The position numbers were made by a program, and so were the translations under genes. DNA of 53,495 bases, counting the filler, from Jimgerdemannia flammicorona (lineage: Eukaryota): assembly GCA_003990765.1 (NCBI GenBank). It is 2 parts of 2 records of this genome, joined end to end, with 100 filler letters (N's around TTAATTAATTAA, not from the genome) between each part and the next. Parts side by side here need not be neighbours in the genome. Positions count along the whole stretch, not along the records: positions 1 to 26,706 come from RBNJ01000704.1; 1 more part is not named here. One strand, 5' to 3'. Below the pieces are notes generated by a model. That model searched no databases. It had not been told where the DNA came from and saw only the letters and a list, made by a program, of their open reading frames with translations. Position 1 is the first letter of the stretch. Each line of letters begins with the position of its first letter. Of the stretch, positions 851-37,163 are shown piece after piece.

Positions 851-1035
851 TAAAATTCGGCAGGTCCACAGATAAGTTGGTTGGCCTTGTGGAATATTTA
901 ATACCTTTCAAATTAATACCTTTCAAAATAATAAAAAAGGAAAAAAAAACCTAAGGACTCAGCCCAGAGTTTGCAGCCCAAGTGAGGCAGGGTTGGCAGT
1001 GGTGGCAGAGAAAGCATATAATATTTATGGCCCTC

Positions 1036-1456
1036 AGCCAGCAGCAAGGGGCAGCCTCAAGCTGCCAGTGCCCAGGTCAGTGGGTGGGTCAGTGGGCGGA
1101 TCAGTGGGTCAGTGGAGAGAGCATGCAAAATTTGTAGCCCTCCACCAGCAGCAAGGGGCAGCCCCAAGCTACAAGTGTCCGGGTTGGGGGATAGGCGGAG
1201 GGAGCATGCAAAATTTGTAGTCCTCTGCCAGCAGCGAGGGGCAGCCCCAAGCTGTCAGCGCCCAGGTCAGTGGGTGGGGTCGGTTGGTGGGTTGGCAGGC
1301 ATGGAGTCGGCAGAGAGAGCATGCAAAATTTACAGCCCTCTGCTGGTAGCAAGGGGCAGCCCCAAGCTGCAAGTATCTGGGATGGGCAGGGCAGGTGGAG
1401 GGAGCATGCAAAATTTGTAGCCCTCCACCAGCAGCATAGGGGCAGCCCCAAGCCGC
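1036..1456. repeat. GC-rich minisatellite, ~85-115 bp units, 4-5 copies; probably subterminal repeats of the hAT element
   Basis: GAGCATGCAAAATTT recurs at ~1119, 1203, 1317 and 1403. GCAAGGGGCAGCCCCAAG-like blocks recur five times. Confidence 0.8.
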
Positions 1457-1989
1457 CAAGGAGTCTGGGGTGGAGGGTGCTTCTGGCAGTCAGAGGGTGC
1501 TTCTGGCAGTCAGAGGGCATTTTTGGTGGTCAAAGTCACTGGTTTGGATCCCATGGGCACCCCAGCCCTGCGCCGCAGTGCTGCACTGGCGGCACTATAG
1601 AGCAGGGCCGAGGGACCAGTAGGGCCCTGCATAATGGCTAAGCTTGTGCTATATAAGAGGTGCCCAGCTCACATAAGACTGCCCAACTCACACAAAATAG
1701 CTACCTAACCCGACCAATCTGCTCAAAGAACCCCAGATCATAGCCGCCATTACCATATAGGTCGTGTCGTACTCACATACAGTTTGCTCTTCAACAGTAC
1801 TTCTAAAGTTTCAGTAGGGATACAGAATCTTGTGTATCCCTGAAATTATATCAAAAAGAGTATGTTAGTAAAGAGTGTGATTTATCTGGGGAGGGGTTAA
1901 AAAAAAAGGGAGATGAGTGTGGGGGATTTCGGAACTCTGGAACCCACCCTTTGCCAGTGTTGCAGTATACCCAATTCCCATCCAAACCC

Positions 1990-3237: not shown

Positions 3238-3465
3238 TACAGGGTGAAAAATGAGTAGACTGGACCAATATACAAATTAAGGGCTGCTGTTTTTTTTGCT
3301 CATGATGTGGCAGGAAAGAACAAAGAAAAAGAACAAAGAAAAAGAACAAAGAAAAGAACAAAAGAAGAGAGGGAGCAAAAGGAAAGGGTGATGTCACCAA
3401 AGTGCAGTAGGAAAAAAAAAACAAGAGTGAAATGAACAAAAGAAAGGGTGATGTCACCAAAGATT

Positions 3466-3727
3466 TCAATCTGGATGGATTAATCTGGATGGACCAATTC
3501 AGATGGACCAATCCAGATAGACCAATCCAGATGGACCAATCCAGATGGACCAATCTAGATGGACCAATCTGGATCAATCCAGATAAATCAATTCAGATGG
3601 ATTAATCTGGATTAATCTGGATCAATCCAGATCAGATCATGAGACCAATCCAAGTTAATTCGAATCCATCACATGACGAATCTGAATCGAATCTCATCTG
3701 GATCAACTCCATCCATTCAGAGCACTA
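3466..3727. repeat. 15-bp GATGGACCAATCCAG tandem array ending in a possible DNA-transposon terminus
   Basis: More than 8 units. The array ends at ...TTCAGAGCACTA (reverse complement TAGTGCTCTGAA), a hAT-like TIR start. No partner TIR was found. Confidence 0.65.
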
Positions 3728-3986
3728 TTCTTGCCTTTCCTCAGTCAACCCTTCAATTTAATCAATAGCTAACTCTCCTTTACCTTATCAGTAAAGCTCA
3801 TCCTTATGGTCTCCTGTCTCCCAGTACTGTCTTCTTCTCTTTCATGTCCTCTAGCCAGCAAGTCTCTCATGCTTCCCTCCAAGCTATGACTTCTCTCTAC
3901 ATACTGCTAGTCAAATACACTAGGGCTACCCTGCCCAGTATATATCTCAGAATACTCATTGGTTACCATGTTTCTAATACCTATTC

Positions 3987-4232
3987 TGTAAGCATACAAC
4001 CTCTAAGCTACTAAAATCACATATCACCCTCAGAACTAATTCAGAAACTACATATAAGATTACAAAACAAGTTACTGAAGAGATCACCTAGTTATACAAA
4101 ATATACCAGCAAGCATGAGAACTTACTATCAAGATATGAAAATATTAGAAGAAGTACTACAACTATAAGACTGACCCTGAACCTCTATAACTAGTTTTAG
4201 TACTATACTATCATAAAAGGAAACTGAAGCAT
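3987..4232 (+). mobile_element. Truncated type-B LTR (5' 245 bp)
   Basis: Starts TGTAAGCATACAACC and aligns to the reverse complement of 25321-25085. It is fused directly to gag sequence. Confidence 0.85.
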
Positions 4233-7200: not shown

Positions 7201-9351
7201 ATATTTGATAGACTTACCAACCTATAATTTATGAGCTCTTTTGACTTGTGAAATGGTTATTGGCAAATTGCTATAAAAGAAGAAGATATCTATAAGATAG
7301 TCTTCCAAACCCGCTATAGACACTTTGAGTTCTTGATTATGCCTTTTGGCTTAACTAATGCTCCTACAACCTTCTAGACACTAATGAATATCATCCTGCA
7401 CCCATATATAGACAAATTTGTTATTATCTATATTGATGACATCCTAGTCTTCAGCAAAACCCTAGAGAAACTTGAACACCTTGAACTAGTACTACTGAAA
7501 CTCTGAGAAAACTGACTCTTTGCAAAACTCAGCAAGTGTGAATTTCTCCTGAAAGAAATTCAATTCCTTAGACACATTGTCATACCAAATGGAATTAAAG
7601 TAGATCCTAGCAAAATCTCTGCAATCAAGGATTGGCCCAGACCCAAGAAGCTGAAAGACTTCTAGTTATTCCTGGGATTAGCAAACTATTATAGGTGATT
7701 TGTTGTCAACTTTGCTAAAATCACTACTGCCCTCACCCAAATGACCAAGTACAATAAGAAATAAGAATAACCCTGGACCATAAAATAAGAGAAAGACTTC
7801 AACAATCTTGTAAATTAGGGACCTAAATAAGATATAGTCTTTCAAGCACTAAAAGATGCCTTAATAACCACTCCAGTACTTCAAGTGGCAAATCCTGCCC
7901 TACCATATGAAGTTATTACTGATGCCTCTGACCTAGCTCTTAGAGCAGTACTCATGCAAGAAGGACACCCTGTGGCCTATCATTCTCATAAGTTCAATGA
8001 TACTGAAATCAACTATGCAACCCATGAAAAGGAAATACTAGCCATTGTAGACACTCTGATCAAATGGTGACCATACTTAGAAGGAGCATACTTCACTGTA
8101 TTGACTGACCATAAGTCATTAGTCAACATCAAGACCTAGGCTACTCTTTCCTGAAAGTAAGCCAGATGGATGAAAGTTCTTACCAACTTTGACTATGAAA
8201 TCCAGTATCAGCCTGATAAGGAAAATATTGTTGCTAATGCAATCTCCAGACCACCAATTGAAGAAGTTATCCAAACTCTCATCCTGATTACCAACACTAT
8301 TATAAAACAAATTATTGCAGCATGTGCTAATGATAAGGAAGCCCAAGCACTCTGAGAAGTCCTGAGCAGTGACAATACCAACAAGCATACCCAGTATAAC
8401 CAATACCAACTGAAGGACAATACTATCTACTATAAGAACAGATTATATGTTCCAAACAACTGAGACCTCTGAAGAACTATCCTATTCAAATGTTATGATG
8501 CCCCTACAGCTGGATATTTAGAATTTGACAAATACTATGAAGTTATTTTCCAAAACTTCTATTGGCCTCATATGGCAGATCAGCTCAAGACCTACATTAC
8601 TTCCTATAATGCCTGCCAATAGAACAAGTCCTCAATACTAGCAAAACCTGGACTACTCCACCCCATCTCAGTACCATCTGCTAATTGGGAATAAATCTCT
8701 ATGAACTTCATTGTATAACTACCCTGAACCAAGAACAGAAAAGATGCAATTGTTGTCTTTGTGGACTATCTTAGCAAGTAAGCCCACTTTGTACTAACTA
8801 CTACTACTGTAACAGTACTAGACATAGCTACACTCTTGTTTGACAATATTTTATGCTATCATGGTCTTCCTAAGATCATTATTAATAATTAAGACCCAAA
8901 ATTCATCAGCTATTTTTGGAAAGCCCTCTATGCATACCTTGGAATGAAACTTGCACTATCCACAGCCTTTCACTCCGAAACTGATGGCCAAACTGAAAGA
9001 ATGAACCAAACTCTAGAACAAATGCTAAGGAACTATATTTCCTATAGACAAGATGATTGGCATGAATATCTCACCACAGTCAAGTTTGCCTATAACAACA
9101 GCAAGCAAGCCTCTCTTGGAATGACTCCATTCTTTACCAATATAGGACAAAACCCAAACATCTCTCTGACACTTATCTAGACCACTGATGAACCTTCTAC
9201 AGTCAAAGCTATTGAAGAATTCTTGCTCTGAATGTACAATCTAAGCCAGATTGCAATCGAGAATTTGTTACAAGCTCAAGAACAACAGTCACAATATTTT
9301 AACTAGCACTGTCAAGAGAAAACTTTTGACATTGGAGAAAAAATTCTACTG
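4233..9351 (+). mobile_element. Degenerate Ty3/Gypsy internal region, copy 1 (partial gag, dUTPase, PR, RT, RNase H, integrase)
   Basis: Colinear with 14187-19312 at an offset of ~9960. Motifs: [54 protein letters not shown]. Many premature stops. Confidence 0.95.
5705..6112 (+). pseudogene. Retroelement dUTPase domain, copy 1
   Basis: AAGYNLY, GGVIDEDYTDKI, ITQIL and SKGFST are degenerate versions of the trimeric dUTPase motifs. Confidence 0.85.
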
Positions 9352-9988
9352 GGTATTTGCAGGATATAGTCATTAGAGTATAAGAAGGTTCTGTCTGTAG
9401 TTTGAATATACTCAATATACTTATGGTTAAGTTCTTATACTATATTATTGATTTAGCCATAGGATAGAGTAGTAACTATTTTAGCAGTAGTAACTTAGAG
9501 GTAGAGAATAAAGGTGCTATACTCATAAAAGAGTTCTCAGTATTTGTAGGTGATGAGTTTCTGGTATTGAGACATCTGAGTAATATATATATCATAGTAG
9601 TATTCAACCATATCTTCCAGAAGATGGCCAATCTGATAATAGCTTAAGATTTGTCTAATTCAGTAGACTTTGTTGAATATATTCAAAGTATTCTATCAGA
9701 CTTCTATAAAGTAGAGGGGTGTTAGATTATAGATATTCATAGGGGGTAGAGGAGGTATATCTTGGTTGACAATGATATTCTAAATATCAGTATGAATGTG
9801 ATTGTAGATCTCAGTGATCATAGTTGTGTATTTGTTCAAGAGTTGTAATTATTTGTTTAGTTTGTTGTAGTTCTCTATTTCAATATATCTGAGTACTCAG
9901 TATATATATATTTAGTCCTAATTGGTAAGGTTCCATTTGTATAAATCTTATATTCTATGACTTTGAGTTGACTCAGCTTTATACTCTA
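9352..9988 (-). mobile_element. Inverted type-A LTR fragment; continues at 25349-25451 after the nested insertions
   Basis: Reverse complement of the LTR ORF region. The sequence ...TCAGCTTTATACTCTA resumes as CTCTGTGACTTTGGTTTAACTCAGC at 25349, matching the uninterrupted copy at 1-232. Confidence 0.85.
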
Positions 9989-10664
9989 TATAAGTGCACA
10001 ACCTCCAAGCTACTGAAATCACACATCACCCTCTGAATAAGCCACCGAAATCACACGCAACCTCCAAATAAATCTAGAAATCATCTGCTCAATTATGAAG
10101 CTAAGTCAAACCAAAGTTACAGCATACAAAGCTGAGTCAACCTGAAGTCACAGAACACAAGATTGACATAAACAAAATCTTACCAATCAGGACTGAATGT
10201 ATATATACTGAGCAGCAAGACACATTGAAACAGAGAACCAAAACAAACAATAATCACACATACAAACATGACCACCAAGATCTACAACTGTATCTGTACT
10301 GATATTTGGAATACTATTGTCAACCAAGCCACACCACCTCTGCCACTCATGAATATCCATAGCCTAGCACCTCTCTACTTTGTAGAAGCCTGATGGAATG
10401 CCCTGAATGTAAGTGCACAACCTCCAAGCTACTGAAATCACATGTCACCCTCTGAACAAGCTACCGAAATCACACACGACCTCCGAACAAATCTGGAAAT
10501 CATCTGCTTGATCACAAAGCTGAGTCAATATGAAGTCACAGAACATAAGATTCACATAAATGGAATCTTACCAATCAGGATCAAATGCATATATACCGAG
10601 CCCTGAGATGCATCAAAACAGAGAACCAAAACAAACAACAACCATAACTTCCAAATATACAAAT

Positions 10665-11762
10665 ATGATCACTGAGATCTACAATTGCATCTGCACTGAC
10701 ATTTGGAATGTCATTGTCAACCAAGCTACACCCTCTCTGCCCCTCATGAATATTCATAGCCTAGCACCCCTCTACTTTATGGAATCCTGATGGAATGCCC
10801 TGAACATGCTTAACAAGGCCCACTGAATTGGACAAATCTCAAGCTACTACCAGATTGGCCGCCTCCTAGAAGACATGATCAAACACTATCATGATACAGA
10901 TATGACCCAGATGTCTCAACATCAGAAGCTCATCACCCGCAAACACCAAGAACTCTTCTTCAAGTATAGCACTGTTATTTCTCACCTCTGAGTTACTACA
11001 GCTAAAATGTTTGCTATTCTGTCTTATGGCCAAATCGATGACATGATACAAGAACTCAACCACAAGTACCTCGAGTATGTTAAAACCACAGATAGAACCT
11101 TCCCACACTCCAACAATCATATCCTGCAAATGCCCCAAGTTGGATATACCATGAAGGACATCTATGATATAATCCACTTCGATGAAGATGAAGTAGAAGA
11201 CAATGATCTCTCTGATACTGACATGACCTCAAGCCAAGGATCTCTACCAACCCTGATCATACTGCCAACCTTGCTGATGAACTTATAACAGTTTATAACC
11301 ACCTACAAGACCTATTAGGACAATGACCATTGGCATAAATACTAACCCATGTTCACTCCCGATTACTTCAACTACAATGAAGAGACTGGAGAACACAACC
11401 TGTACCTTCAGACAACCCTTGACATTGAACCAATCACTTCACCACCCAAGTATGAGTGACATGAACCACAGCCACCAGCTTACTACAATCCTGTAACTCA
11501 TAGTATTGTAACCTATGGAAGGTACATAGACAGTGAATCTGAGAAAAGTGAAGATGATGCATCCCTCCTTTACCTGCCAATACCTTACCTAGTATATGAG
11601 ACTGATGATGTCATTTTGTGGAACAGAGACAAAGTCTCAATATATTACTATCTCAGTGAACAAGGAGAAGTAATCCGCAAACCACTCTTCCTAGATAACT
11701 ACTTCATCAGAGATGATACAATTAATAATGATATCATCGAAGACTACCCAGACAGTGCCTAA
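10665..11762 (+). pseudogene. LTR-encoded ORF A (365 codons, unknown function), 5'-LTR copy
   Basis: One frame from MITEIYNCI to IIEDYPDSA*. Most internal stops are CGA/CAA/TGG in another LTR copy. The length is 1098 nt in three copies. Confidence 0.75.
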
Positions 11763-11950
11763 ACCATAAATAGCTTAGTAGTCATAGTATAGTTAGATTA
11801 TTCTTATACAATATAACTGTGAACTGACTCAGCAGTCAGATGATCTCTTGACATGTCAGATCACTCTTGTACTATGTAACTGCATTCCAACTCAGCAAGG
11901 TACTTAGTGCTACATCCATATTCAGCATAGTCCAGATAGCTCCTCACCAG

Positions 11951-11956
11951 TATAAA
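11951..11956 (+). promoter_or_regulatory. Putative LTR TATA box
   Basis: AGTATAAA followed by a C-rich run, seen at the equivalent position in the LTR copies (~21478, ~23380, ~25926, and ~24325 on the minus strand). Confidence 0.5.
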
Positions 11957-12444
11957 CACCCCCTGCCCCAGACCTCAGAATCTCAGACTCGAACACACAA
12001 GAACATTCCTGAACACTTCCCCACAATACTCCTTTACACAACTACTCCTAGTATAGCAATATCATGAATAACAAATAAACTTATATATGTAATAACCCAC
12101 AAACCACTCTTAAGTAAATCTGCTCCCTGTTAGGTCCCACTCCTAACTCCGTCATGAAATTTCCTAATTGGGTATTATCTGCAGTGATACACCAATTCAA
12201 CTAAGCTGGTCTTAGTTTCTTGAACTTTCTGAAATACAGAAAATTCTGAATATTCAGAACTAGTCTGAAAAAGGACTTTGGTTGAGACATCAACCTGATC
12301 TTGAAATCAATAAGCATAGAGGACATACTCCATATGAAATTGATCTTGATCTTAAGAAAATGGTCTTCCAGAATATTCAGAACTTCCAGAAAACCCTTCC
12401 AGAACTATGTAAATGTTACCCTAAAAAGCAACTCTCTTACAACT

Positions 12445-12456
12445 TGGTAGCAGTGG
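12445..12456 (+). other. Primer-binding site, probably initiator tRNA-Met
   Basis: TGGTAGCAGTGG lies 3 nt after the 5' LTR. TGGTAGC is complementary to the ...GCTACCA 3' end of eukaryotic tRNAi-Met. Confidence 0.75.
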
Positions 12457-12773
12457 TTTACAATCTAATTCCACTTCAAGACGCTTCCTCACCCCACTAC
12501 AAACCCCTCTGAGAATTCTTACAAGTTGGTATAAAGCCCAACCTCTGAACTGGAATTTACCCTGAACTATCTGACAATCTGGAGAGAATTAAACCTGACA
12601 TACAAGGACAATTTGACCTCTACACCTGCAATAAGTGGGACAAACTTTACTTAAAGAAAGAAGTACTCCAATTAAACTAGCAAATAGGTGAAACCCTATT
12701 CACCAAACTTCTTGCTCTACACCTAGTAAGTCAAGATGAAGAAGGTCTTATAGAAGCCTTCTTTACTCTTCTC

Positions 12774-13952
12774 TTTTTTTTTTTGTTTAACGGACTCTAT
12801 GTCCCATGGATTTTTATTGGAAGGGAACCTAGAATATAGGCCAAAACTCTCCCCCACCATCCATTAAGCACTGCCCCCCCATTAATCTAGGCTAGCTATT
12901 GTCCAGCAGCTCAACCATATTAGGCACAGCAGGGCAAAGTAGCCTACACCTCATTCTGTGCACCATGCTCTCCCTATCACCAAGGGAAATCCAGCCATAT
13001 GCCAACAACCAAAAGTATACACCTGAGAACCCAATGTATGTATAAGGCTACACCCGAGCCAAATAGAATAGCCCCTACCACTCTAAAGAGAATGACAGGC
13101 AAAGAAAAAACCCTCATCAAAGTACAACACAGTGGGTAGGGCCTAGTTCTCCCAGTTGAGGTGAGTAAAGGACTTATACATGAGGTGGGAGGAGACCCCC
13201 AATACCCCACTACTCAAGCCTGCAGGTCTTAATCACATTGCCATGTCAGCTCCTGGTTCCAGTTGAGTGTAGCCAAGATGCCTGAAATGGGTAGCCTCAG
13301 GCCCCCCAACCCCCCCCGACAACCGGGGCCCAACCCCATAAATTGCCAAAAGAAGCCGAGAGTGACACCTACCACCTAACCACACCGTACCAATCAAAAG
13401 GCCCCACTGAAGCAGTACCTGCCCCAGTCCCAATGATTGCCCCCAGCCTGGCACCCTACTGGTTCACTGTTATCACCCTTCCTCCTATCTGTAATGGCCA
13501 TCTCTCCTCTCATCCCAACAACACCTAAGAAGCAGTCACCTATGCCAGAACTGTGCTCACCAGGAAGCTCGCCAAAGCCAGAGGGCTCCACCACAGGTAC
13601 TGAGGACCTGCAGGTAACCTACACTAAGCACTTGATGCCCAAGGTTGGCTGACTCTCTATATAGCCCAAGATACACCAGGACACCACCTTATTGGTGACA
13701 GCAAAAGGAAGAAGGCACTGCACCAAAATGGATGCACTCCAGATACAGCTGAAGGCACCAGAAACTGTGAATAAGTGGAGAAGACACCGATCCAGCACTG
13801 ATAAAGGGGCAACTCATCACCATTGTCTTCCTCCTGCCAAGCCCATGCAGGCACAGCAAACTAACCCAAGATAGAGGGGGTAATAATAGGGGAAAGGGGA
13901 CTCAGAAGATCACCTACCAAACCTTGTGACCAGTAAGGTAGCGGAGAAAGGG
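12774..13952 (-). mobile_element. 5'-truncated non-LTR retrotransposon (LINE-like) inserted in gag
   Basis: Perfect 18-bp TSD GCCTTCTTTACTCTTCTC (12756-12773 and 13953-13970). T12 at 12774-12785 is a poly(A) tail on the minus strand. The gag frame is restored when the insert is removed. Confidence 0.85.
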
Positions 13953-15664
13953 GCCTTCTTTACTCTTCTCAACAAGAGTTTTGTCAGCTCCACAAATCTG
14001 AGTGACCTAGGACAACCAGCAGCAGTCTTTCTAGCCTTAGTCCCTCATGAAGCCCAAGTCTCTATAGCCAAGTGGCTCAACTCTACTGTCTTTCACCATA
14101 CCAGAACCAAGACTGTACTATACTACCGATTCCAAAACAGCAAGGTCTACCATATTCTTAAAGAAGAAGCAAGAGAAACTCTTCATCAACTACCTGACCC
14201 CAAACCTGAAGCAGGCCCTACTACAGCCCTACCTGAATCTGAAATCAATACTGAACTAGAATTTGACTTCAAATTAAGTCCATCTGAAATCAGATATACA
14301 ACTAATTCCATCTACTTTGATACTGAGCAAACCCAATTACATAGAGACCAAACTGAAGAGGAGGAGGAGTATCTCAGTAAATTTGATCCCAGATACACCA
14401 CTGAAGGAGAAGCACCTCCATCAGGACAGAATACACCTATACAGCAACAAACAGCTATCTATCAAGCCCTTACTCCAGACCCACAATAACTACTCCAGCA
14501 ACTTACACAGACCCAAATAACACCCTCACACTCTACACAGTACCTCAAGTAGTACCAGTAACACCACTACCAGCAGTCCAACCACCTCCAGTAAACAACA
14601 TGGTAAACCAACAGATTCTAGACCTCACAGCCCAGATAGCCAAAATGGCAGCAACCATTACTGCCTTAGCCAAACAGATCTGACCTACCAAAAATCTGAG
14701 CCTACCTACCTTCAATGATACTGCATAAGAAGTCCAAAGCTTCATTAGTGTAGTTGACACCAACTTCAAAGCCAATCAATAGACCAATGAGCGAGTTGCT
14801 GACCGCATTCTGATAAACAATCAAGACCACACTCTGGAACAACTCTTTGCTACTACTATAGCCTATGTCTGCCAAGTTGTTACATTCTTCCGAGGACCCA
14901 CTGAAGAATAGTGGTAAACCCTTCCTGAAAAACTCCTCACATGGGACACCTGACCTGCAGTGGTTGCTCAGAATGTAGCAAATAATATTCTAGGATATGG
15001 AGCTCATCCTGCAGCCCCTGGACTCAAACAACTCATGATTGCTCAATACTACAGTGAAACCATGATTGCTGAATCTTGAGTAATACTCTGTAACCTCAAA
15101 TTCGATATATATGGCAAAGAAGAATTCAAAACCTTCTGTACAAAACTTGAGTCACTCCTGAACACTATTGACCTAGGATATATTGCCAATGATAAAGCAC
15201 AAAATGGTACAAGAGCAGACCATTTATTTGATGCACTACCTAAATGGCTTACTAGAAAAATCTGAGAACAAGACTGCCCAGTTGGTTGTGACTACCAACA
15301 ATGATGCCTGGCAAGAATCAAGACTATGGTTAAGTGAATCCTAACAGCTGGACCAATTCTGCCCTGAAGACAATTCAACAATAAGGAAAAGACTTGGACC
15401 AAGAAAGAAGAACTCAAGCATGAAGCATCCTGAGCTCCCTCTACATCCACCTCATGGATACCTGGAAATCATGAATCTACTCAGCTGAGTATCTTCAAGA
15501 AACTCACTGAAGGAGAAAGGAATGAACTTCAAAGAAGTGGAGCATACTTCTATTGCCAAAAGACAGGACATATGGCCAGTACCTGCCCTAACTGAAAACC
15601 CCAAACAGCAATACGAGCAACTGTTACCACTCTGTACCACCTCAACAACCTGACCACCAGAACA

Positions 15665-16072
15665 TTAGACTTTGTCAAGTTAAGACAAACTGCCAAGGCC
15701 CCAACCAAAGAAAGTCAAAAAGCAGCTGGATATGACCTGTATGCAGTCGAAGAAGCTACAGTTTCCAACCAAGAAGTCAAGCAAGTCTACACAGGAATCA
15801 GTATCCAAATTCCTGAAGGATATGTTGGAAGAATATGCTGTCACAGTAGCCTAGCATTGAAAGGACTCTCAGTAGAAGGAGGAGTCATTGATGAAGATTA
15901 CACAGGCGAAATTATTGTCCTCATCCAAAACTACAGTTGGACACTCTTCAAGATCTCTATTGGATTCTGTATTGCCCAGATACTATTTGAAAAAATCAAG
16001 TCAATGCTGACAGTCAAGGAAGTCTCTGAACTACTACCTACCATCCAAGGATCCAAAGGATTTGGCTCATCA
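15665..16072 (+). pseudogene. Retroelement dUTPase domain, copy 2
   Basis: All five motifs are recognisable: AAGYDLY, (R>H)SSLA, GGVIDEDYTGEI, (R>C)IAQIL, (R>Q)GSKGFGSS. In frame after the Gag zinc knuckle. Confidence 0.92.
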
Positions 16073-19000
16073 AACAAGGCTCCAGCCCAATCTAGTATGA
16101 ACAAAGAAGAACAATTCTATAAGAAAATCGAAGATAGATATATATCAAGTAGCTGATGCCCCTGTGGTATTGGAATGTACTCTTCCCAAATAATCAATGA
16201 TTGCTTCTCTTGTGTCAATGAACTGGCCCAAGAAGAACCAACAGAAGGAAAACTCCTACAACTAAAATTACCACTATTGGATCGGACAAACTGCTTATAC
16301 TCAAAGCTTTTATCAACCAAGCACCTGTCAAGATTATGATAGACAGTAGTGCCTCAGGCAACTTCATCAATGAAGAAACAGCCAATAGGCTCAAGGTCTT
16401 CACCTCTCTGGTACAACAAACTCAAGTATTTGCAACAGCTGATGGAACCTCTCATGTTATTAGCAAGGAAGTCTGCAATCTACCCTTCTGAATTGGTAAC
16501 TACTGAGTATATGTTACTCTCCAAATTGTACCACTTCCTGACAATGAAATCATCCTTGGGACTCCATGATTAAAATAAGAGAACCCTATGATCGATTGGG
16601 TAAATCATTCTCTGACCATTAAGAAAGGATGTCACAACTTCAAACTGCAAGGTGAAAAGGACCCACTCAACTCTAGTGACTCTAGACCAAAGATCACCCA
16701 CATCAACAAGCTACAACTCAAGAAATTAGCCAAGAAATATCCTCTCTTTGCTATCTCTATCCATCCATCTAAAGGAGAACCCGAGAACTCTGAAGAAGAC
16801 TTTTTCAAAGTTGACAGTCATATCAGACTACTACTCCAGAAATTCCGAGACATATTCCTAAAGAAGCTCCTAAAAGGCCTACCTCCCAAATGAGCAGTAG
16901 ACCATGCCATCAAGACTATCCCAGATGCCAAACTAGCCTTCAAGTCAATCTACTATATGTCTCCAAGAGAAATTGATGCACTTAAGAAGGAAATCGATAA
17001 ACTCCTAGAACAAGAATTCATCAGACCCAGTGTATCACCCTATGGTGCACCAGTCCTCTTTATTGTCAAGAAAGGAGGAGACCTGCGAATGTGCATTGAT
17101 TACTATGACCTCAATGAACAGACCATCAAGAACTATTGCCCACTACTGAGGATCGATGAAATATTTGATAGACTTACCAACCCACAATTCATGAGCTCTT
17201 TTGACCTACGAAATGGTTACTGGCAAATTACCATAAAAGAAGAAGACATCTACAAGACAGCCTTCCAAACCCACTATGGACACTTTGAGTTTCTGGTTAT
17301 GCCTTTTGACTTAACCAATGCTCCTACAACCTTCCAGACACTGATGAATACTATCCTGCACCCATACCTGAACAAATTTATTATTGTCTACATTGATGAC
17401 ATCCTAGTCTTCAGCAAAACCCTGGAGGAACATCTTGAACACCTCGAACTAGTACTACTGAAACTCCAAGAAAACTGACTCTTTGCAAAACTCAGCAAGT
17501 GCAAATTTCTCCTGAAAGAAATTCAATTCCTTAGACACCTTGTTACTCCAAATAGAATCAAAGTGGATTCCAGCAAAATCTCCACAATCAAGGATTGGCC
17601 CAGACCCAAGAAGCTAAAAGACCTCCAATCATTCCTGGGATTAGCAAACTATTACAGGCGATTTGTTGCCAACTTTGCCAAAATCACTATGGCCCTCACC
17701 CAAATGACCAAGCATAGTAAGAAAGAAGAACAACCCTGGACCACAAAACAAGAGAAAGACTTCAACAATCTTGTAAACTGGGGACCCAAACAAGATATCA
17801 CCTTTCAAGCACTGAAGGATGCCTTCCAGTACTTCAAGCAGCAAATCCTGCCCTACCATATGAAGTCACTACTGATGCCTCTGACCTAGCCCTTAGAGCA
17901 GTACTCATGCAAGAAGGACACCCTATGGCCTATCATTCCCATAAGTTCAATGATGCTGAAATTAACTACACAACTCATGAGAAGGAAATGTTAGCCATCG
18001 TAGACACTCTGATCAAATGGTGACCATACCTAGAAGGAGCACACTTCACTATATTAACTGACTACAAGTCATTAGTCAACATCAAGAGCCAGGCTACCCT
18101 TTCTCGAAAGCAAGTCAGATGGATGAAAGTCCTCACCAACTTTGACTATGAAATCCAGTATTGCCCTGATAAGGAAAATATTATTGCTGATACAATCTCC
18201 AGACCACTAATTAAAGAAGTTATCCAAACCCTCACCTTGGTTACAAACTCTATTATGGAACAAATTATCACAGCATATGCTGATGATAAGGAAGCTCAAG
18301 TACTCCTAGAAATTCTAAATAGTGACAATGCTGACAAGCACACCCAGTACCATCAATACCAACTCAAGGACAATGCTATCTACTACAAGGACAGACTGTA
18401 TGTTCCAAATAACTGAGATCTCTGAAGGACTATCCTATTTGAATGTCATGATGTCCCTATAGCTGGACATTTAGAATTTGATAAATGTTATGAAGTTATC
18501 TTCTGAAACTTCTATTGGCCCTGCATGGCAGATCAGCTCAAGACCTATATTACTTCCTGTGATGCCTGCCAATGGAACAAGTTCTCAACCCTGGAAAAAC
18601 CTGGTCTACTCCACCTTATCCTAGTATCATCTGCAAATTGGGAACAAATCTCTATGGACTTCATTGTACAACTACCCTGAACCAAGAACAGGAAAGATGC
18701 AATTGTTGTCTTTGTGGACTATCTCAGCAAACAAGCTCACTTTATACCAACCACCACCACTGCAATAGCACCAGAGATAGCCACACTCTTGTTTGATAAC
18801 ATCTTCCACTATTATAGTCTTCCTAAGATTATTGTTAGTGACCGAGATCCAAAATTCACCAGCCATTTTTGGAAAGCCCTCCATACATACCTTGGAACAA
18901 AACTTGTACTATCTACAGCCTTTCACCCTGAAACTGATGGCCAAACCAAAAGAATGAACCAAACTCTGGAACAAATACTAAGGAACTATGTTTTCTATAG

Positions 19001-19556
19001 ACAAGATAATTGGTATGAATACCTCACTACAGTCGAGTTTACCTATAATAACAGCAAGCAAGCCTCTCTTGGAATAACCCCATTCTTCACCAACACTGAA
19101 TAAAACCCAAACACCTCTTTGACACTCATCTGAACTACTAAAGAACCCTCTATAGTTGAAGCTGTTAAAGAATTCTTACTCCGAATATGTAATCTAAGTC
19201 AGATTGCAATTGAGAATTTATCGCAAGCTCAAGAACAACAGTCACAGTATATTAACCAACACTACCAAGAAGAAATCTTTGATATTGGAGAAAAAGTTCT
19301 ACTAGACATCCAAGGATACCAAGTTGACAACCTGAAGCACAGACCATCTATGAAGCTAAACAGTAAGTTCATTGGACCATTCAAAGTCATCACACAAGTC
19401 TCTCCCACTTTCTACAAATTGGTACTACCAGATACTATTAAAGTCCACCCAGTCTTCAATGTCCAACGTCTCAAGTGATATAATGAAAACAATGATGAGC
19501 TATTTCCAAACCAGACTACCAAACCACCTGCACCTGTCATAATTAATAACCAAGAA

Positions 19557-19706
19557 GAATATGAAGTTGAACAAATCCTCAATAAATGTGGCAACAAGAA
19601 GCACTCTGAGTACCTTGTCAAATAGAAAAGTTACCCAATCTATGATATAATATGGGAACCCAAGACCAATCTCCCAAATGCTACTGACTTAGTTTAGGAA
19701 TATAAT
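19557..19706 (+). other. Integrase C-terminal chromodomain
   Basis: EYEVEQILNK...EYLVK*KSYPIYDIIWEPKTNLPNA matches the chromodomain consensus YEVE.IL...YLVKWKGY....TWEP..NL. Confidence 0.88.
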
Positions 19707-19920
19707 TCCTTGAACAACTGAAATCTGAATACTCCAACACCTATTAGAACATACTATATATTACTCTCCTGAATATTATAATTATCACAAACCTAATCAA
19801 GAACTCAGCAAAACAAGACAAGAATACTGACTCTCTAGAAAAATAGCAAACTGAAAGTAAGCCTATTCTCCCCATACTACTGAGCAAAATTAGAAGGCCC
19901 CAACAAGGATATTGAAAGCT

Positions 19921-19933
19921 AAGAAGGGAAGAG
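19921..19933 (+). other. Polypurine tract
   Basis: AAGAAGGGAAGAG immediately before the 3' LTR. Confidence 0.85.
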
Positions 19934-19934
19934 T

Positions 19935-22228
19935 TATAAGTACACAACCTCCAAGCCACTGAAATCACACATCACCCTCTGAATAAGCCACCGAAATCAC
20001 ATGTGACCTCTAAACAAATCTGGAAATCATCTGCTTGATCACAAAGCTGAGTCAATATGAAGTCATGGAACACAAGATTTACACAAACGGAATCTTACCA
20101 ATCAGGATCAAATGCATATATACCAAGCCCCAAGATGCATCGAAACAGAGAACCAAAACAAACAACAACCACAACTTCCAAACATACAAATATGATTACT
20201 GAGATCTATAACTGCATCCACACTGACATTTGGAATACTATTGTCAACCAAGCCACACCCCCTCTGCCCCTCATGAATATCCATAGCCTAGCACCCCTCT
20301 ACTTCATGGAATCCTGATGGAATGCCCTGAATATGCTTAATAAGGCCCACTGAATTGGACAAATCTCAAGCTACTACCAGATTGGCCATCTCCTGGAAGA
20401 CATGATCGAACACCATCATGATACAGATATGACCCAGATGTCTCAACACCAGAAGCTCATTGCCTGCAAACACCAAGAACTCTTCTTTGAGTATAGCACT
20501 ATTATTCTCCGCCTCCGAGTTACTACAGCCGAAATGGTTGCTACCCTGTCTTATGGCCAAATCAATGACATGATACAAGAACTCAACCACAAGTACCTCA
20601 AGTATATTGAAATCACAGACAGAACCTTCCCACATCCCAATGATCATATTCTGCAAAAACTCCAAGTCAGATATGCCATGAAGGACATCTATGATATAAT
20701 CCACTTCGATGAAGATGAAGCAGAAGATAATGATCCCTCTGATACTGACATGACCTCAAGCCAAGGATCTCTACCAACTCTGATCATACTGCCAACCTTG
20801 CCGATGAACTTATAACAGTTTATAACCACCTACAAGACCTATTGGGACAATGATCATTAGTATAAATACCAACCTGCATTCACTCCTGATTACTTCAACT
20901 ATAATGAAGAGACCGGAGAACACAATCTGTACCTTCAGACAACCCTTGACATTGAACCAATCACTCCACCACCCAAGTATGAGCGATATGAACCACAGCC
21001 ACCAGCTTACTACAATCCTACAACTTATAGTGCTGTAACCTATAGAAGGTATATAGACAGTGAATCTGAGGAAAGCAAAGATGATGCATCCCTCCTTCAC
21101 CTGCCAACATCTTACCCAGCATACGAGACTGATGATGTCATCTTGTGGGATGGAGATGAAGTTCCAATATATTACTACCTTAGTGAATAAGGAGAAGTAA
21201 TCCATAAACTACTTTTTCTAGATGACTACTTTATCAGAGATAATGCAATCGATGGTGATGTCATCGAAGACTACCCAGACAGTACCTAAACCATAAATAG
21301 CTTAGTAGTCATAGTATAGTTAGATTAGCCTTATATAACATAACTGTGAACTGACTCAGTAGTCAGATGATCTCTTAATATATCAGATTACTCTTGTACT
21401 ACATGACTGCATTCTGACTCAACAAGGTACTTAGTGCTATATCCATATTCAGCATAGTCCAGATAGCCCCTCACTAGTATAAATACCCCCTGCCCCAGAC
21501 CTCAGAATCTCAGACTTGAATACACAAGAATATTCCTGAACACTTCTCCACAATACTCCTTCATACAACTACTCCTAGTATAGCAATATCATGAATAGCA
21601 AATAAATCTATCCCTTTGTCTATAGATAAGATCATCTTTTAAAATCATTTAGCAGACAAATTAAAGTTTGAAAAAAATGATTTTTTAAAACATTGTTTTT
21701 CTGTCTCAATTTGTTTAAAAACAAAAAAAAAAATTTTTATAAAATTTTTACCAAAGGTAGAATTATTATATAAAAAATTATTGGTAAATTTTTTTTTAAA
21801 AGCTATTATGATTTTAAAAGTTATAAACTTTTAAAATCTTGCTTCTAAATATAGGTGCAAAACAGTCAAAGAGATATAATAACCCACAAACCACTCTTAA
21901 GTAAATCCACTTCCTATTAGGTTCCACTCCTAACCCCATCACAAAATTTCCTAATTGGGTATTGTCTGCAGTGATACACCAATTCAACTAAGCTGGTCTT
22001 AGTTTCTTGAACTTTCTGAAATACAGAAAATCCTGAACATCCAGAACTAGTCTGAAAAAGGACTTTGGTTGAGACATCAACCTAATCTTGAAATCAATAA
22101 GCATAAAGGACATACTCTATATGAAATTGATCTTGACCTTAAGAAAATGATCTTCCAGAATATTTAGAACTTCCAGAAAACCCTTCTAGAACTATGTAAT
22201 GGTTATCCTAAAAAGCAACCCTCTTATA
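19935..22228 (+). repeat. 3' LTR (type A) containing ORF A (20192-21289) and a MITE
   Basis: Direct repeat of 10408-12441 plus a ~264-bp insertion. Termini TATAAG...CTTATA. Confidence 0.95.
21611..21874. mobile_element. AT-rich MITE-like insertion
   Basis: Absent from the other LTR copies. The ends TATCCCTTTGTCTAT and ACAGTCAAAGAGATA form a 12/15 inverted repeat. A 2-bp TA or AT duplication is present. Confidence 0.75.
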
Positions 22229-23844
22229 CTGAATATGCTTAATAAGGCCCACCAGATCAGACAAATCTCAAGCTACTACTAGATTGGTTGCCTCCTGGAA
22301 GATATGGTTGAACACTACCATGATACAGATATTATTCAGATGTCTCAATACCAGAAGCTTATTGCCCGCAAATACAGAGAACTCTTCTACAAGTACAGTA
22401 CCTTTATTCTCTGCCTCTGAGTTACTACTGCCAAAATGGTTACTACTCTGTCCTATAGCCAAATTGATAACATGATACAAGAACTCAACCACAAGTATCT
22501 TGAGTATATTAAAACTACAGACAGAACCTTCCCACACCCTGACAACTATATTTTACAAATGTCTCAAGTTGGTTATGCTATAAAGGACATCTATGATATA
22601 ATCCACTTCGACAAAGATGAAGCAGAAGATAATGATCCCTCTAATGCCAATATGACCTCAAGCCAAGGATCCCTGCCAACCCTGATCACTCTGCCAATCT
22701 TGCCAATGAACTTACAACAGTTCATAACCACCTATAAGACTTATTGGGACAATGACCACTGGTATGAATACCAACCTACATTCACCCCCAATTACTTCAA
22801 CTATAATGAAGAGATTTGAGAACACAACCTGTACCTCCAGACAACTCTCGAGATCAAACTAACCACTTCACCATCTGAGTATGAGTGACATGAACCACAG
22901 CCACCAGCTTACTACAATCCTGCAACTTATAGTACTGTAACCTACAGAAGGTATGCAGACAGTGAATCTGATGAAAGCAAAGATGATGTACTCCTTTTTC
23001 GCTCACCAATACCTTATCCAGTATATGAGACAGATGATGCAATTCTGTGGGATGGAGATAAAGTCCCAATGTATTACTACCTCAGTGAATAAGGAGAAGT
23101 AATCTGTGAACCACTCTTCCTAGATGACTACTTCATCAGAGACGATGTCATCAATAGTGATATCATCAAAGACTACTCAGACAGTATCTAAATCATAAAT
23201 AGCTTAGCAGTCATAGTATAGTTAGATTAGCCTTATACGACATAACTGTGAACTGACTCAGCAATCAGATGATCTCTTGATATATCAGATCACACTTGTA
23301 CTACATAACTGTATTCCAACTCAGCAAGATACTTAGTGCTATATCCATATTTAGCATAGTCCAGATAGCCTCTCACTAATATAAATACCCTCTCCCCCAG
23401 ACCTCAGAATCTCAGACTCAAATATACAAGAACATTTCTAAACACTTCCCCACAATATCCCTTCACACAACTACTCCTAGTATAGCAATATTATGAATAG
23501 CGAATAAACCTATTTAATAATCCACAAACTACTCTTAAGTAAATCCACTCTCTATTAGGTCTCACTCCTAACTCTGTTATGAAATTTCCTAATTGGGTAT
23601 TGTCTGCAGCAATATGCTAATTCAACTAAGCTAGCCTTAGTTTCTTGAACTTCCTGAAATATGGAAAATCCTGAACATCCAGAACTAGTCCGAAAAGGGA
23701 CTTTGGTTGAGACATCAACCTGATCTTGAAATCAATAAGTGTAGAGAACATACTCTATATGAAATTGATCTTGACCATAAGAAAACAGTCTTTTAGAATA
23801 TCCAGAACTTCCAAAAAACCCTTCCAGAACTACATAACAGTTAC

Positions 23845-25321
23845 TGTAAGAGGGTTGCTTTTTAGGATAACCATTACATAGTTCTGGAAAGGTTTTCTGG
23901 ATATTCTAGATGTTCTGGAAGACCGTTTTCTTATGGTCAAGATCAATTTCATATGGAGTACATCCTCTATGCTTATTGATTTCAAGATTGGGTTGACATC
24001 TCAACCAAAGTTCTTTTTTGGACTAGTTCTGAATGTTCAGGATTTTCTGTATTTCAGGAAGTTCAAGAAACTAAGACCAGCTTAGTTGAATTGGTATATC
24101 GCTGCAGACAATACCCAATTAGGAAATTTCGTGATGGGGTTAGGAGTAGGACCTAACAGGGAGCGGATTTACTTAAGAGTGGTTTGTGGGTTATAGAATA
24201 GGTTTATTTACTATTCATGATATTGCTATACTAGGAGTATTTGTGTGAAGGGATATTGTGGAGAAGTATTCAGAAATGTTCTTGTGTGTTCGAGTCTGTT
24301 TAAGTCTGGGGGAGGGGGTATTTATACTAGTGAGGGGCTATCTGGACTATGCTGAATATGGATGTAGCACTAAGTACCTTGCTGAATTGGAATGCAGTTA
24401 CGTAGTACAAGTGTGATCTGATATGTCAAGAGATCATCTGACTGCTGAGTCAGTTCACAGTCACATCATATAAGGCTAATCTAACTATACTATGACTGCT
24501 AAGCTATTTATAGGTTTAGGCACTGTCTGGTTAGTCTTTGATGACATCACTATTGATGACATCATCACTGGCAAAGTCTGAGCAGTTTTCTGACTTCTGA
24601 CATCATCAGTTTTCAAGATGTCGTCACTTCTATCTTTTGTAAGATTAAGACTGTTCTTGGTAGTGGTGGTTGTACAAGGATAACCAGTCTTGGTTCTCTT
24701 TTTTTTTTGGTTTGCTGGCGCATTTGCGAGGACTGGCCATTCTCGTCTAGGGTGAGGGCTCCCAATGTCGCAGCTGGGGGTTCGAACCTCTCGGAAATGA
24801 TATTTTCTATAATCCGAGGCAATTTCTAGTAGTAATATCTGTCACATGGATGGCTTGAGATTGGTTTTGACATTGTCGGCTTTCTTGAGTTTAGATGAAG
24901 TGTCCGTCACTCTTCAATGGAGGTGACACAGATAAAGCGAACGGAGTTGTTCAAATACATTTTGCTTCTGCTAAGTAATGAGGTCTTGTATAGTCACAGT
25001 ATATCTTGGTCTTGAGTTGATAAGTGCAGTTCGTGAACCTTTTGATGGGTGAGATAGGGTTCTTCTTGTCTTGATTTGAGTTTAGTACTTTCGGTTTCTT
25101 TTGTAATAGTACGGTATACTAAACTAGCTATAGCAGTTCAGAGTCAGTCTTATGGTTGTAGTACTTCTTCTAGTATTCTTGTATCTTAGTAGTAAGTTCT
25201 TGTGCTTGCTGGCATATTTGTGTAACCAGATGATCTCTTGTTTTGTAGTCTCGCATGTGGTTTCTGAATTAGTTCTGATGATGCTATGTGATTTTGGTGG
25301 CTTGGAGGTTGTGCGCTTACA
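23845..25321 (-). mobile_element. Type-B solo LTR (1477 bp), inverted
   Basis: Intact TGTAAG...CTTACA termini and TSD GTTAC (23840-23844 and 25322-25326). Shares its first ~40 bp and last ~720 bp with type A; the middle is unrelated. Confidence 0.93.
24516..25215 (-). pseudogene. LTR-encoded ORF B (~232 codons, unknown function)
   Basis: Reads MPASTRTYY*DTRILEEVLQP...DFASDDVINSDVIKD*PDSA*. It has C->T-type stops and one 1-nt slip in the homopolymer at ~24700. The copy at ~4103 shows CAA at the first stop. Confidence 0.6.
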
Positions 25322-25451
25322 GTTACTCTAAAAAACAACTCTCTTATACTCTGTGACTTTGGTTTAACTCAGCTTCATGATCTTATATGATTTTCTAATT
25401 TGTTCAGAGAGTGATATATGGTTTTAGTGACTTAGAGGTTGTACACCTATA

Positions 25452-26706: not shown

Positions 26707-26806
26707 NNNNNNNNNNNNNNNNNNNNNNNNNNNNNNNNNNNNNNNNNNNNTTAATTAATTAANNNNNNNNNNNNNNNNNNNNNNNNNNNNNNNNNNNNNN
26801 NNNNNN
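26707..26806. other. Assembly gap with a six-frame-stop linker
   Basis: N44-TTAATTAATTAA-N44. Confidence 0.98.
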
Positions 26807-35127: not shown

Positions 35128-37163
35128 ATGGCATCCTCTCAGATCATTGGGAAACTGTCCAAGGAGGACTACCGTAAGCAGAAGGACCTCGAGGCTGCAC
35201 GGAAGGCCGGTACCGCTCCCGCAGAGCGTGACGAGGAAGGCAAGGAGATCAACCCCCATATCCCACAGTACATCTCAAAGGCACCATGGTACCTCGACAC
35301 CGGTCATGCCTCGCTCAAGCATCAGCGTGTGCCGACCAGCGGTTCGGAAACGGCGTTGAAGGACAAGGGCGAATGGTACGCGAGAGGTGTGAGAGCTGTA
35401 GGTCGAGGTTTTCATTTTTTTTTCGCAAGTTCGCTCATTCAGAACGTTCGAGTTATAACTATTCGACATGGTCATGGTTCTATAGGGTCCCGCCGCGACA
35501 AAATTCCGCAAGGGCGCCTGCGAGAACTGCGGCGCCATGACGCACAAGACCCGGACGTGCATGGAACGTCCGCGGAGGCAGGGCGCCAAGTGGACAGGCA
35601 AAGACATCCAAGCCGACGAGGTCGTAGAGAATTTGAAGCTGGACTGGGACGAGAAGCGAGACCGCTGGAACGGTTACGATCCGCGTGAGCACGACAAGGT
35701 CGCGGAGGAATACGAGAGAATTGAGGAGGAGCGCCGCAAGCTCAAGGCCTCGGAGCTCGACAAGCAGGGGCCCACTACCACCGCTGAGGCCAAGAAGATC
35801 GTCGAGGGCGGCGCTGGGGGTTTCTCGAGCGACGATGATAATGATGATGAGGAGAAGTATGCGGAGCAGATGGATATGCCGGGGCAGAAAATCAATACCA
35901 AGACGAGGACGACCATCAGAAACTTGAGGTATGATGCTTCCTCCGAATTTATATTTGCATTTAGTCTACCCTACAAAAACGATCCTGACATCTACTTCCT
36001 CGTGTAACAAATAAATAAATAAATAAAGGATTCGCGAAGACACGGCCAAATACCTCCTCAACCTTGATATCAACTCCGCACACTATGACCCCAAGACCCG
36101 CTCGATGCGCGACAACCCGAACGCGGAAGTAAATCCGGAGGATGCGCACTACGCTGGCGATAACTTTGTGCGGTACACGGGCGACGCGCCCGAGCTGGCC
36201 AAGGTGCAACTATTCGCGTGGAACGCTGCCGAACGCGGCAACGACGTGCACCTCCAGGCCAACCCCACCCAGCTGGCCCTGCTGCACAAACAATACGAGT
36301 CAAAGAAGGAGAAGGTCAAGGACACAAATCGCGACTCCATTCTGGAGAAATACGGGGGGGAGGAGCATCTCGAGGCTCCGCCAAAGGAGCTGCTACTTGC
36401 GCAGACGGAGAACTACGTCGAGTATTCGAGGACGGGGAAGCTCGTCAAGGGGCTGGAGAAGCTAAAGGCGAAGTCGAAGTACGATGAGGATGGTGTGTAT
36501 CTCTTATTGGTTTTTAGGAGACATGTTGCAAAGATTTATTTCCATATGGATGAATCCGAACACTCACCCTGCCGTTCATTTTCGTCAACGCCACCAGTTC
36601 ACCCTTACAACCATACTACCATTTGGGGGTCGTACTGGGCTGACGGCCGTTGGGGCTACAAGTGTTGCCGCTCTTTCAACAAGAACGCGTATTGTACCGG
36701 TCTCGCGGGTATCGAAGCCGCCAAAGCCGCGACCGCGGCTCAGCTCCTCGGCGAGGGCTCCGCCTCCTTCTCCGCCGCGGCCGCCATGGCTGCCGGCGGC
36801 GAAGACGATGGCACGCAGAAGACACTACTGGAGCAGCATCTCGAGAACAAGAAGAAGAATAGAGGTAAGGACAAGGATAAAGAAGGCACGTCCAACCCGC
36901 ACCTGAAGCGTAAGGACCTGGGCGAGGGAGACGTCGAGCTCGACCAACACAAGCTCAAGAAGGCGCTGAGAGAGCTGGACGAGAAGAAGAGGGGAGGGGA
37001 AAAAGGAGAGGAGTTGGACGAGCGGAAGAGGAAATACAACTCGGCATATGCTAGCGGGAAGGCGGAGGAGGAAGTTACGGAAGAGCAGCTAGAGGCGTAC
37101 AGGTTGAGGAGGCAGCATTACGACGACCCCATGACGAATTACAAGGACGACGACGACGATTGA
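35128..37163 (+). CDS. SLU7: Pre-mRNA splicing factor Slu7
   Basis: [35 protein letters not shown], zinc knuckle [38 protein letters not shown]...YDPKTRSMR and WGSYW...WGYKCC. Three introns. Confidence 0.97.

Follow-up and report, generated by a model that had tools for sequence, protein, structure and literature searches.

A Solo LTR of Jimgerdemannia flammicorona Probably Represents a Mosaic Subfamily Without an Open Reading Frame in U3

Introduction

Can a retrotransposon's long terminal repeat (LTR) serve as a slot in which one accessory gene is exchanged for another? The question is raised by a 1477-bp repeat in the genome of Jimgerdemannia flammicorona (assembly GCA_003990765.1). The first-pass annotation of this DNA distinguished two LTR types, A and B, with common ends and unrelated middles, and proposed that each type carries its own open reading frame (ORF) in U3, fused in frame to one constant acidic C-terminal peptide and its stop. 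If this reading were true, retrotransposons would have a previously unseen way of carrying genes as modules. The results described below instead favor an ordinary mosaic LTR subfamily, like those already known from the crapaud elements of Podospora. "The window" refers here to the whole stretch of DNA that was analyzed, which is 53,495 nt long and consists of two joined parts, with positions 1 to 26,706 taken from RBNJ01000704.1.

The Nest of Retrotransposons and Its Decay

From about position 1 to 27000 the window is made up of nested Ty3/gypsy retrotransposon copies, with host genes to the right. Six A-type and two B-type pieces were counted in the window. The elements and their LTRs are located as follows:

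3987..4228, plus strand: head of element 1, another LTR piece of type B that matches B nt 1-245 at 80% and is joined directly to gag
4238-9350: gag-pol of element 1, ~86% identical to the gag-pol of element 2
10408..22228, plus strand: element 2, a full Ty3/gypsy copy, with target duplication CTGAA at 10403-10407 and 22229-22233
10408..12441, plus strand: LTR A1, type A, the 5' LTR of element 2, 2034 bp, followed by the primer-binding site
19935..22228, plus strand: LTR A2, type A, the 3' LTR of element 2, with the polypurine tract just before it
22229..23844, plus strand: main part of LTR A3, whose remaining parts lie at 9988-10407 and 25327-25348
36105-37160: Slu7 splicing-factor gene, an example of a host gene to the right of the nest

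Element 2 contains gag, dUTPase, protease, reverse transcriptase (RT), RNase H, integrase, and a Tf2-type SH3 domain. When its stop-free pieces were submitted to Pfam, families were found in 7 of the 11 frames sent, with dUTPase at an E value of 8e-33 and the other matches being aspartic protease, RT, RNase H, integrase, and SH3_Tf2-1. A1 and A2 flank this internal region and, together with the primer-binding site, the polypurine tract, and the CTGAA duplication, establish type A as a bona fide LTR. A2 additionally contains an AT-rich insert of ~265 bp at about 21610-21874. A3 is the host of both element 2 and the solo LTR of type B. The first-pass annotation had also reported a second type-B copy starting at 3987. 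This copy does begin as type B, but it runs only through B nt 1-245 before gag takes over. One internal gag-pol family stands behind both LTR types, with a B-type head on element 1 and A-type LTRs on element 2.

All of these copies are decayed. A1 and A2, the two LTRs of element 2, are 90% identical and differ by 189 transitions and 6 transversions, and the internal regions of elements 1 and 2 (85.75% identity, 5130 bp) differ by 642 transitions and 66 transversions over 5099 sites compared. Changes between copies are mostly found in CpA context, and CpG stands at 0.12-0.43 of expectation in the retrotransposon copies versus 1.04 in genes. The classical indices of repeat-induced point mutation (RIP) are equivocal, with TpA/ApT values of 0.72-1.24. 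The decay is nevertheless described as "RIP-like", apparently of the RIP kind, on the strength of the surplus of transitions and of the CpA context in which copies differ. Decay of this kind would account for the many stop codons in the copies. Two degenerate patterns, one from the shared tail of the LTRs and one from the LTR 5' end, returned 0 matches each in metagenome DNA.

The Open Reading Frame in the Type-A U3

The type-A LTR has a long ORF, which can be followed in both LTRs of element 2:

10524..11762, plus strand: A-type U3 ORF in A1, 413 codons long when its 8 internal stops are read through; positions 48-412 are matched by intact relatives
20051..21289, plus strand: A-type U3 ORF in A2, with 5 internal stops

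In type-A coordinates the ORF extends from nt ~120-123 or 258 to nt 1355. It is wholly contained in U3, and its stop is followed ~190 nt downstream by the TATA box. In the shuffle test the frame had 8 and 6 stops, compared with ~25 per frame in shuffled sequences, and none of 1000 shuffles was as low. A codon model trained on the gag-pol of the elements gave this frame +74.6 and +85.1 bits. A word-indexed search with the ORF found one relative, P0003, and a profile search of 1.84 billion representatives found only two, P0003 and P0005, which are metagenomic. P0003 is an intact protein of 247 aa that aligns with the C-terminal 250 residues of the ORF at 60% identity and 78% similarity; it ends in EYPDSI and keeps the tail as FIRDDVIDDDLIAEYPDSI. 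P0005 (128 aa) corresponds to positions 48-175, and where A1 and A2 have two TGA stops in common it reads Arg each time. Both relatives thus have amino acids at places where the copies in the window are interrupted. Judged by codon usage and by these relatives, the type-A U3 ORF is genuine, sense-strand, and at least 365 codons long. Its value lies in this length, in its position wholly within an LTR, and in the 60% identity that has been kept in another sample.

Further searches added little about what the protein might be. The ORF had no Pfam match, and among viral contigs 149 pattern matches to its profile yielded 0 confirmed cases. In the Atlas, P0003 had no usable match by features and its structure neighbors had TM values of 0.30 or less, while the feature matches of P0005 pointed to no consistent family. 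The Atlas model of P0003 has a pLDDT of 0.39, and AlphaFold2 run on a 4-row alignment of the A ORF gave a mean pLDDT of 33.2. Since the ORF lies in U3, it should be present only at the 3' end of the genomic RNA, and a spliced or internally initiated mRNA is predicted to be needed for its expression.

The Solo LTR of Type B

The repeat that raised the question lies on the minus strand within A3, and its parts are as follows:

23845..25321, minus strand: type-B solo LTR, 1477 bp, with TGTAAG...CTTACA ends
23840..23844: left copy of the target-site duplication GTTAC; excision of B restores the end of A3
25322..25326: right copy of the target-site duplication GTTAC
25217..25321, minus strand: B nt 1-105, the 5' terminus that can be aligned to A, close over the first ~36 nt and then decaying
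24578..25216, minus strand: B-specific middle of 639 bp, which has no relation to its A counterpart and no convincing coding signal
23845..24577, minus strand: B nt 745-1477, common to A (89%), comprising the end of U3 with the TATA box and then putative R and U5
24516..24569, minus strand: remnant of the A-type ORF's final codons, SDDVINSDVIKD(stop)PDSA(stop)
24318..24328, minus strand: TATA-box motif AGTATAAATAC, identical in 4 A copies
24700..24810, minus strand: G+C-richer patch in the B middle, with a G+C content of 0.52 over B nt 501-600 and a CpG observed/expected ratio of 0.92 over B nt 501-620

The TG...CA ends, the 5-bp duplication, and the restoration of A3 when the flanks are joined show that B is a true insertion unit and a solo LTR. 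It has the features by which solo LTRs are recognized, namely short inverted TG...CA ends, a target-site duplication, and homology to repeats that flank gag-pol. The TATA motif had 9 matches versus 1.72 expected, a count reached in 0 of 100 shuffles, and it is found at about B nt 996 and at about A nt 1544. A drop in depth near 24295 in run X4 is a hint only of an R boundary, as it comes from contigs of a run whose RNA label is a guess. Of the runs listed as containing B, none is recorded as RNA.

The G+C-richer patch is little touched by C-to-T decay. A tRNA or SINE origin was considered for it and dropped: ARAGORN found 0 tRNA genes in the patch; Rfam gave only sub-threshold miRNA-like matches, 3 of 4 of which fell on the tail-to-tail LTR hairpin around 23800-23910; and the folds were unremarkable, with z-scores of -0.04 and +0.43 and thus no excess of RNA structure. 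The idea that contigs of run X4 place the patch in foreign flanks was likewise dropped. The flank that had appeared unlike the window resembles window sequence, and these contigs therefore represent a diverged B-like copy and not a different context.

Comparison of the Two LTR Types

Several elements of the first-pass annotation held up when the two types were aligned. B shares only its ends with A: B nt 1-105 aligns to A nt 1-111 with 72% identity and B nt 745-1477 to A nt 1294-2034 with 88.8%, which leaves B nt 106-744 (639 bp) and A nt 112-1293 (1182 bp) as unrelated blocks. No match between the middles was found by blastn with word size 7 or by tblastx. The Smith-Waterman score was 14 against a null of 13.6 +/- 1.6, and a transition-tolerant matrix gave 82 against 66.9 +/- 9.5. 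The tail peptides also read as had been quoted, with A ending in DDTINNDIIEDYPDSA and a stop and B in DDVINSDVIKD(stop)PDSA(stop). The breakpoint was correctly placed inside the A coding sequence. It lies 52-59 nt ahead of the A stop codon, so that 17-19 codons of the A ORF are stranded in B, and this position is the reason that a shared tail peptide can be read in B at all. The premature stop in the B relic is a C-to-A transversion relative to A.

The two shared ends differ in character. Over the first ~113 alignment columns, A1 and B differ by 12 transversions and 8 gap columns, as opposed to 0-1 transversions in the same stretch among full-length A copies. Over the about 730 nt of the 3' shared part, B has 14 and 9 transversions relative to A, and its identity to A (89%) is about that of A1 to A2 within element 2 (90%). 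The likeness between B and A fades gradually from the 5' terminus inward, whereas the 3' junction is sharp. The types differ only within U3, in the part upstream of the TATA box; R and U5, whose boundaries are putative, are conserved.

Contigs from other public runs support this layout. Contigs of type A cease to agree with B precisely at 24570 and 25286, and loose A-type ends occur at 25286 in runs X5 and X2. The B junction is bridged by contigs (X4 record 21 and X5 record 27), and the B bins are covered in four public runs at 30/30, 29/30, 30/30, and 30/30. The junction between A-like and B-specific sequence is not an assembly artefact.

Coding Tests on the Type-B Middle

The first-pass annotation had described an ORF of ~232 codons in B that runs into the shared tail. 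Read in the frame of the tail, however, the 212 codons of the B middle include 12 stops, little different from the average of 13.7 per frame in shuffled sequence, and on the B strand no stop-to-stop frame of at least 70 aa terminates in the tail. Stops number 5 and 8 in the remaining two sense frames. The codon model scored the three sense frames at +6.6, +4.4, and -16.0 bits, the last value belonging to the tail frame, and the least-interrupted frame is a different one; the proposed fusion of another ORF to a constant C-terminal tag finds no footing in these numbers. Antisense scores in B, which reach +26.0, were set aside because the model is inflated on antisense, where a non-coding control received +45.9 bits.

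Letter-by-letter comparison of B within the window draws on one full copy and one 242-bp piece. Over the first 245 nt, B and the copy at 3987 differ by indels, and they have in common a stop at nt 196 in frame 1 and stops at nt 150 and 192 in frame 3. B nt 192-194 also reads as a stop in the copies of run X1, in 227 of 235 depth units. Variants from other copies remove at least 1, 3, and 3 stops in the three frames, among the 40 of 290 variant places listed. As far as can be tested here, then, B is not open in the frame of the tail. Frame 1, the least interrupted, has no protein relative among proteins of 152-487 aa or of 30-151 aa. Six-frame Pfam analysis of B gave no family at the cut-off, the sole row being LepB_N with an E value of 0.065 and 13.3 bits against a cut-off of 25. 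From this pattern of stops and codon scores, the B middle is most likely non-coding.

Origin of the Type-B LTR

We consider it likely that 23845-25321 is the solo LTR of an ORF-less subfamily B, that this LTR is a mosaic, and that its "tag" is a leftover of the 3' end of the A ORF. From its ~100-bp 5' terminus to a point that precedes the A stop by 52-59 nt, B holds 639 bp of unrelated sequence, a description that is neutral as to the direction of gain or loss. The proposed origin is one non-homologous crossover between two LTRs, in which 733 bp at the 3' side would have come from an A-like LTR and 745 bp at the 5' side from a more distant LTR lineage. The route may have been a switch of templates, during reverse transcription, from one RNA to another packaged with it, or alternatively ectopic recombination or gene conversion between DNA copies. 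A single crossover is preferred to a cassette set between two constant arms because the 5' part is far more diverged and fades while the 3' junction is sharp. The likeness at the 5' terminus could then reflect conservation of the LTR end for integration. What had been taken for a shared acidic tag looks like the stranded 3' end of the A ORF and not like a functional module.

Part of the original proposal survives in this account. LTR types that vary in U3 and arose by recombination or template switching remain the likely explanation, with the variable block lying upstream of the TATA box; the ORF cassette in B does not survive. A modular accessory-gene system would have each U3 type carrying an ORF, which A does and B does not, and such a system is left without evidence because a cargo ORF has been shown for type A only. 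B-type elements have nonetheless transposed, as is seen from the target duplication, the two B copies in the window, and the B-specific sequence in other runs. Since B moved without a U3 ORF, the ORF would not be needed in cis for mobility. LTRs with and LTRs without a validated U3 ORF, both of them transposed, form a natural contrast that bears on this need.

Counter-evidence to a non-coding B middle comes from frame 1, which could be read as a decayed ORF of B's own, either never fused to the A tail or fused to it before a frameshift near the junction. This frame has only 5 stops in 213 codons, a minimum as low as that of 22 in 1000 shuffles (P = 0.022). Its longest open run in the middle is 88 codons (P = 0.072), and a 118-codon open run crosses the junction. 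One of its stops is TGG in most other copies, since of 182 depth units in run X1, 180 have TGG in place of the TGA at B nt 406-408, and its second half (B nt 421-744) scores +14.3 bits versus +17.0 for the first part of the A ORF. Nevertheless, no ATG precedes the long open run, the tail is read in a frame other than frame 1, the codon score for the whole cassette is just +6.6 bits, and neither a protein relative in the two length classes nor a Pfam family was found. The stop at nt 196 is present in both B copies, and indels between the copies break the frame. The B sense strand is also T-poor, and stop counts are generally lower on it for that reason. On balance a decayed ORF in frame 1 is unlikely. 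If this stop-poor frame were the wreck of a second ORF, U3 could be a true site of cargo exchange at which a hotspot upstream of the A stop swaps the bodies of the encoded proteins, a scenario that we regard as quite improbable.

The cassette slot as it was reported, with a different accessory ORF in B fused in frame to the constant acidic peptide and stop, can draw on the position of the junction inside the A coding sequence, on the conservation of the tail in the intact relative P0003, and on the transposition competence of B. It must contend with a tail frame that is nearly as interrupted as shuffled sequence and scores negatively as coding, with stops at nt 150 and 192 that the second B copy shares (the latter also seen in run X1), with the lack of any stop-to-stop frame of at least 70 aa that ends at the tail, with variant letters that remove stops alike in all frames, and with a premature stop within the B tail itself that arose by transversion. 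This makes it very unlikely.

Equally hard to sustain is the idea that the two middles are homologous throughout but have diverged strongly, and that B is a shrunken, decayed A ORF region. Residues 36-93 of B frame 1 resemble residues 137-197 of the A ORF, at a level reached by 9 of 300 shuffles with A1 and 28 of 300 with A2. An hhalign comparison gave an E value of 0.13, and a 13-nt identity (B nt 712-724 and A nt 1194-1206) reads TDDV in both. Against the intact relatives, however, the match is reached by 187 of 500 shuffles for P0005 and 85 of 500 for P0003, and because it is gone there, the resemblance is treated as chance. The hhalign probability is 0.45%, BLASTP E values are 44 or worse, the nucleotide local score falls within the shuffle range, and the 13-mer has a blastn E value of 1.3. 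Homology of the middles is thus highly improbable. Finally, an assembly chimera or local rearrangement that was never a moving LTR type, which a dense nest of near-identical repeats and an N run near 26762-26806 might suggest, is extremely unlikely in view of the perfect 5-bp target duplication, the host LTR restored on removal of B, the second B-type 5' end at 3987, the coverage of B bins in all 4 runs (29-30/30), and the contigs that bridge the junction.

Comparison with Known Systems

The type-A ORF and the exchange that produced type B call for different comparisons. Retroviruses provide examples of genes in an LTR: MMTV encodes sag within its LTR, and nef of HIV and SIV overlaps the 3' U3. 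By position in U3, these two genes are the nearest analogues of the type-A ORF, while type B has no such ORF. The setting here differs in that the host is fungal and the element is without env, and no sequence or fold likeness between the A ORF and retroviral sag or nef was found (no Pfam match; AlphaFold pLDDT 33).

Among LTR retrotransposons, additional ORFs (aORFs) reportedly occupy the interval from the 5' LTR to gag or that from pol to the 3' LTR. One aORF is brtn of Botrytis Boty/BcGypsy1, according to PMC7264820 and PMC8365987, where Zhao et al. 2011 is cited. Like the type-A ORF, the aORFs described there, brtn among them, are extra, lineage-restricted ORFs with no assigned function in Ty3/gypsy elements (PMC7264820, PMC8365987). 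The cited title presents brtn as antisense, in contrast to the type-A ORF, which is sense and inside the LTR. The available text of the aORF review (PMC7264820) does not contain "within the LTR" or "in the LTR", and a survey of the titles and abstract openings of listed papers, which dealt with retroviruses or other topics, found no prior description of a sense ORF wholly inside the LTR of an LTR retrotransposon.

For type B, one parallel is offered by the hybrid LTRs of Ty1 and Ty2 in Saccharomyces cerevisiae, as cited in the accessible part of PMC10787394. They are mosaic LTRs, as B probably is, and arose when related lineages of elements recombined; as cited there, only regulatory sequence was exchanged in them, unlike A and B, with no ORF gained or lost. 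The closest parallel is crapaud of the Podospora anserina complex. In the accessible part of Westerberg et al. 2024 (PMC10787394), 14 LTR subfamilies of crapaud are described, set apart mainly by the portion of U3 upstream of the TATA box, and recombinant LTRs are reported. As in the B family, the element is a fungal Ty3/gypsy-type LTR element under RIP with solo LTRs in abundance, the variation lies in U3 upstream of TATA with R and U5 conserved, and recombinant LTRs or template switching are discussed as its source. The two systems differ in number, with 14 LTR types in crapaud and two in the window, and in content: the same part of that article gives no coding description of the variable U3 parts, whereas the type-A U3 here is a validated ORF of at least 365 codons whose 3' end is cut by the junction. 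By analogy with that system, B is probably a crapaud-like, U3-variable LTR subfamily.

An Open Reading Frame Enclosed in U3

The U3 region of the type-A LTR, the common LTR of this Ty3/gypsy family, encloses a whole open reading frame in the sense orientation, and it is present in both LTRs of element 2, the full copy in the window.

10524-11762 and 20051-21289, + strand: type-A LTR U3 ORF, sense, at least 365 codons

Intact relatives of this ORF were found in two metagenomic proteins, P0003 (247 aa) and P0005 (128 aa), and no others were recovered among 1.84 billion representatives. The ORF was assigned to no Pfam family and to no confident fold. The two LTRs of element 2 also differ by an insert that is carried by A2 and missing from A1.

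about 21610-21874: insert in LTR A2, approximately 265 bp, very AT-rich

The B LTR and Its Junction with A3

The middle of B, a solo LTR in inverted orientation, is decayed apart from one patch.

24700-24810, - strand: G+C-richer patch in the B middle, CpG content normal

Coverage of the B middle by the public sequencing run X4 is best at this same patch, in which no tRNA, Rfam family or RNA-fold signal was detected. The word depth of the X4 contigs (the kind of run was guessed as RNA) is 315-9371 in bins 23895-24294 and falls to about 10-19 in 24295-24594, directly upstream of a site that lies ~30 nt beyond the TATA box. Such a drop would be consistent with transcription beginning at that site, but because the depth is that of contigs it gives no more than a weak hint. 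Rfam matches to the plant miRNAs MIR781 and MIR396 at 23799-23911, all of them below threshold, are a by-product of the tail-to-tail junction at which the B LTR, in inverted orientation, meets LTR A3; the arms there span 431 nt and are 87% complementary.

Nesting, Flank, and dUTPase

Own-family LTRs host nested elements at 9350-10407 and 22229-25451. LTR A3 is the host of both element 2 (TSD CTGAA) and B (TSD GTTAC), and A3 itself lies within the inverted LTR A5, with a TSD of about CGCTG that has since decayed to CTCTA/CTCTG. Such an arrangement suggests self-targeted integration or merely a dense repeat island. At the right margin of the nest, the run of N at about 26762-26806 (X in translations) is an assembly gap, and the gene-bearing flank, unmutated and of ~50% GC, contains a host gene.

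36105-37160, + strand: host gene, Slu7 domain (pre-mRNA splicing factor), E 2.4e-47

Element 2 contains a dUTPase domain, and element 1 has its equivalent.

15596-16153, + strand: dUTPase domain, element 2, Pfam E 8.2e-33
near 5600-6088: dUTPase equivalent, element 1

The domain is positioned in the order gag, dUTPase, protease in a fungal Ty3/gypsy element.
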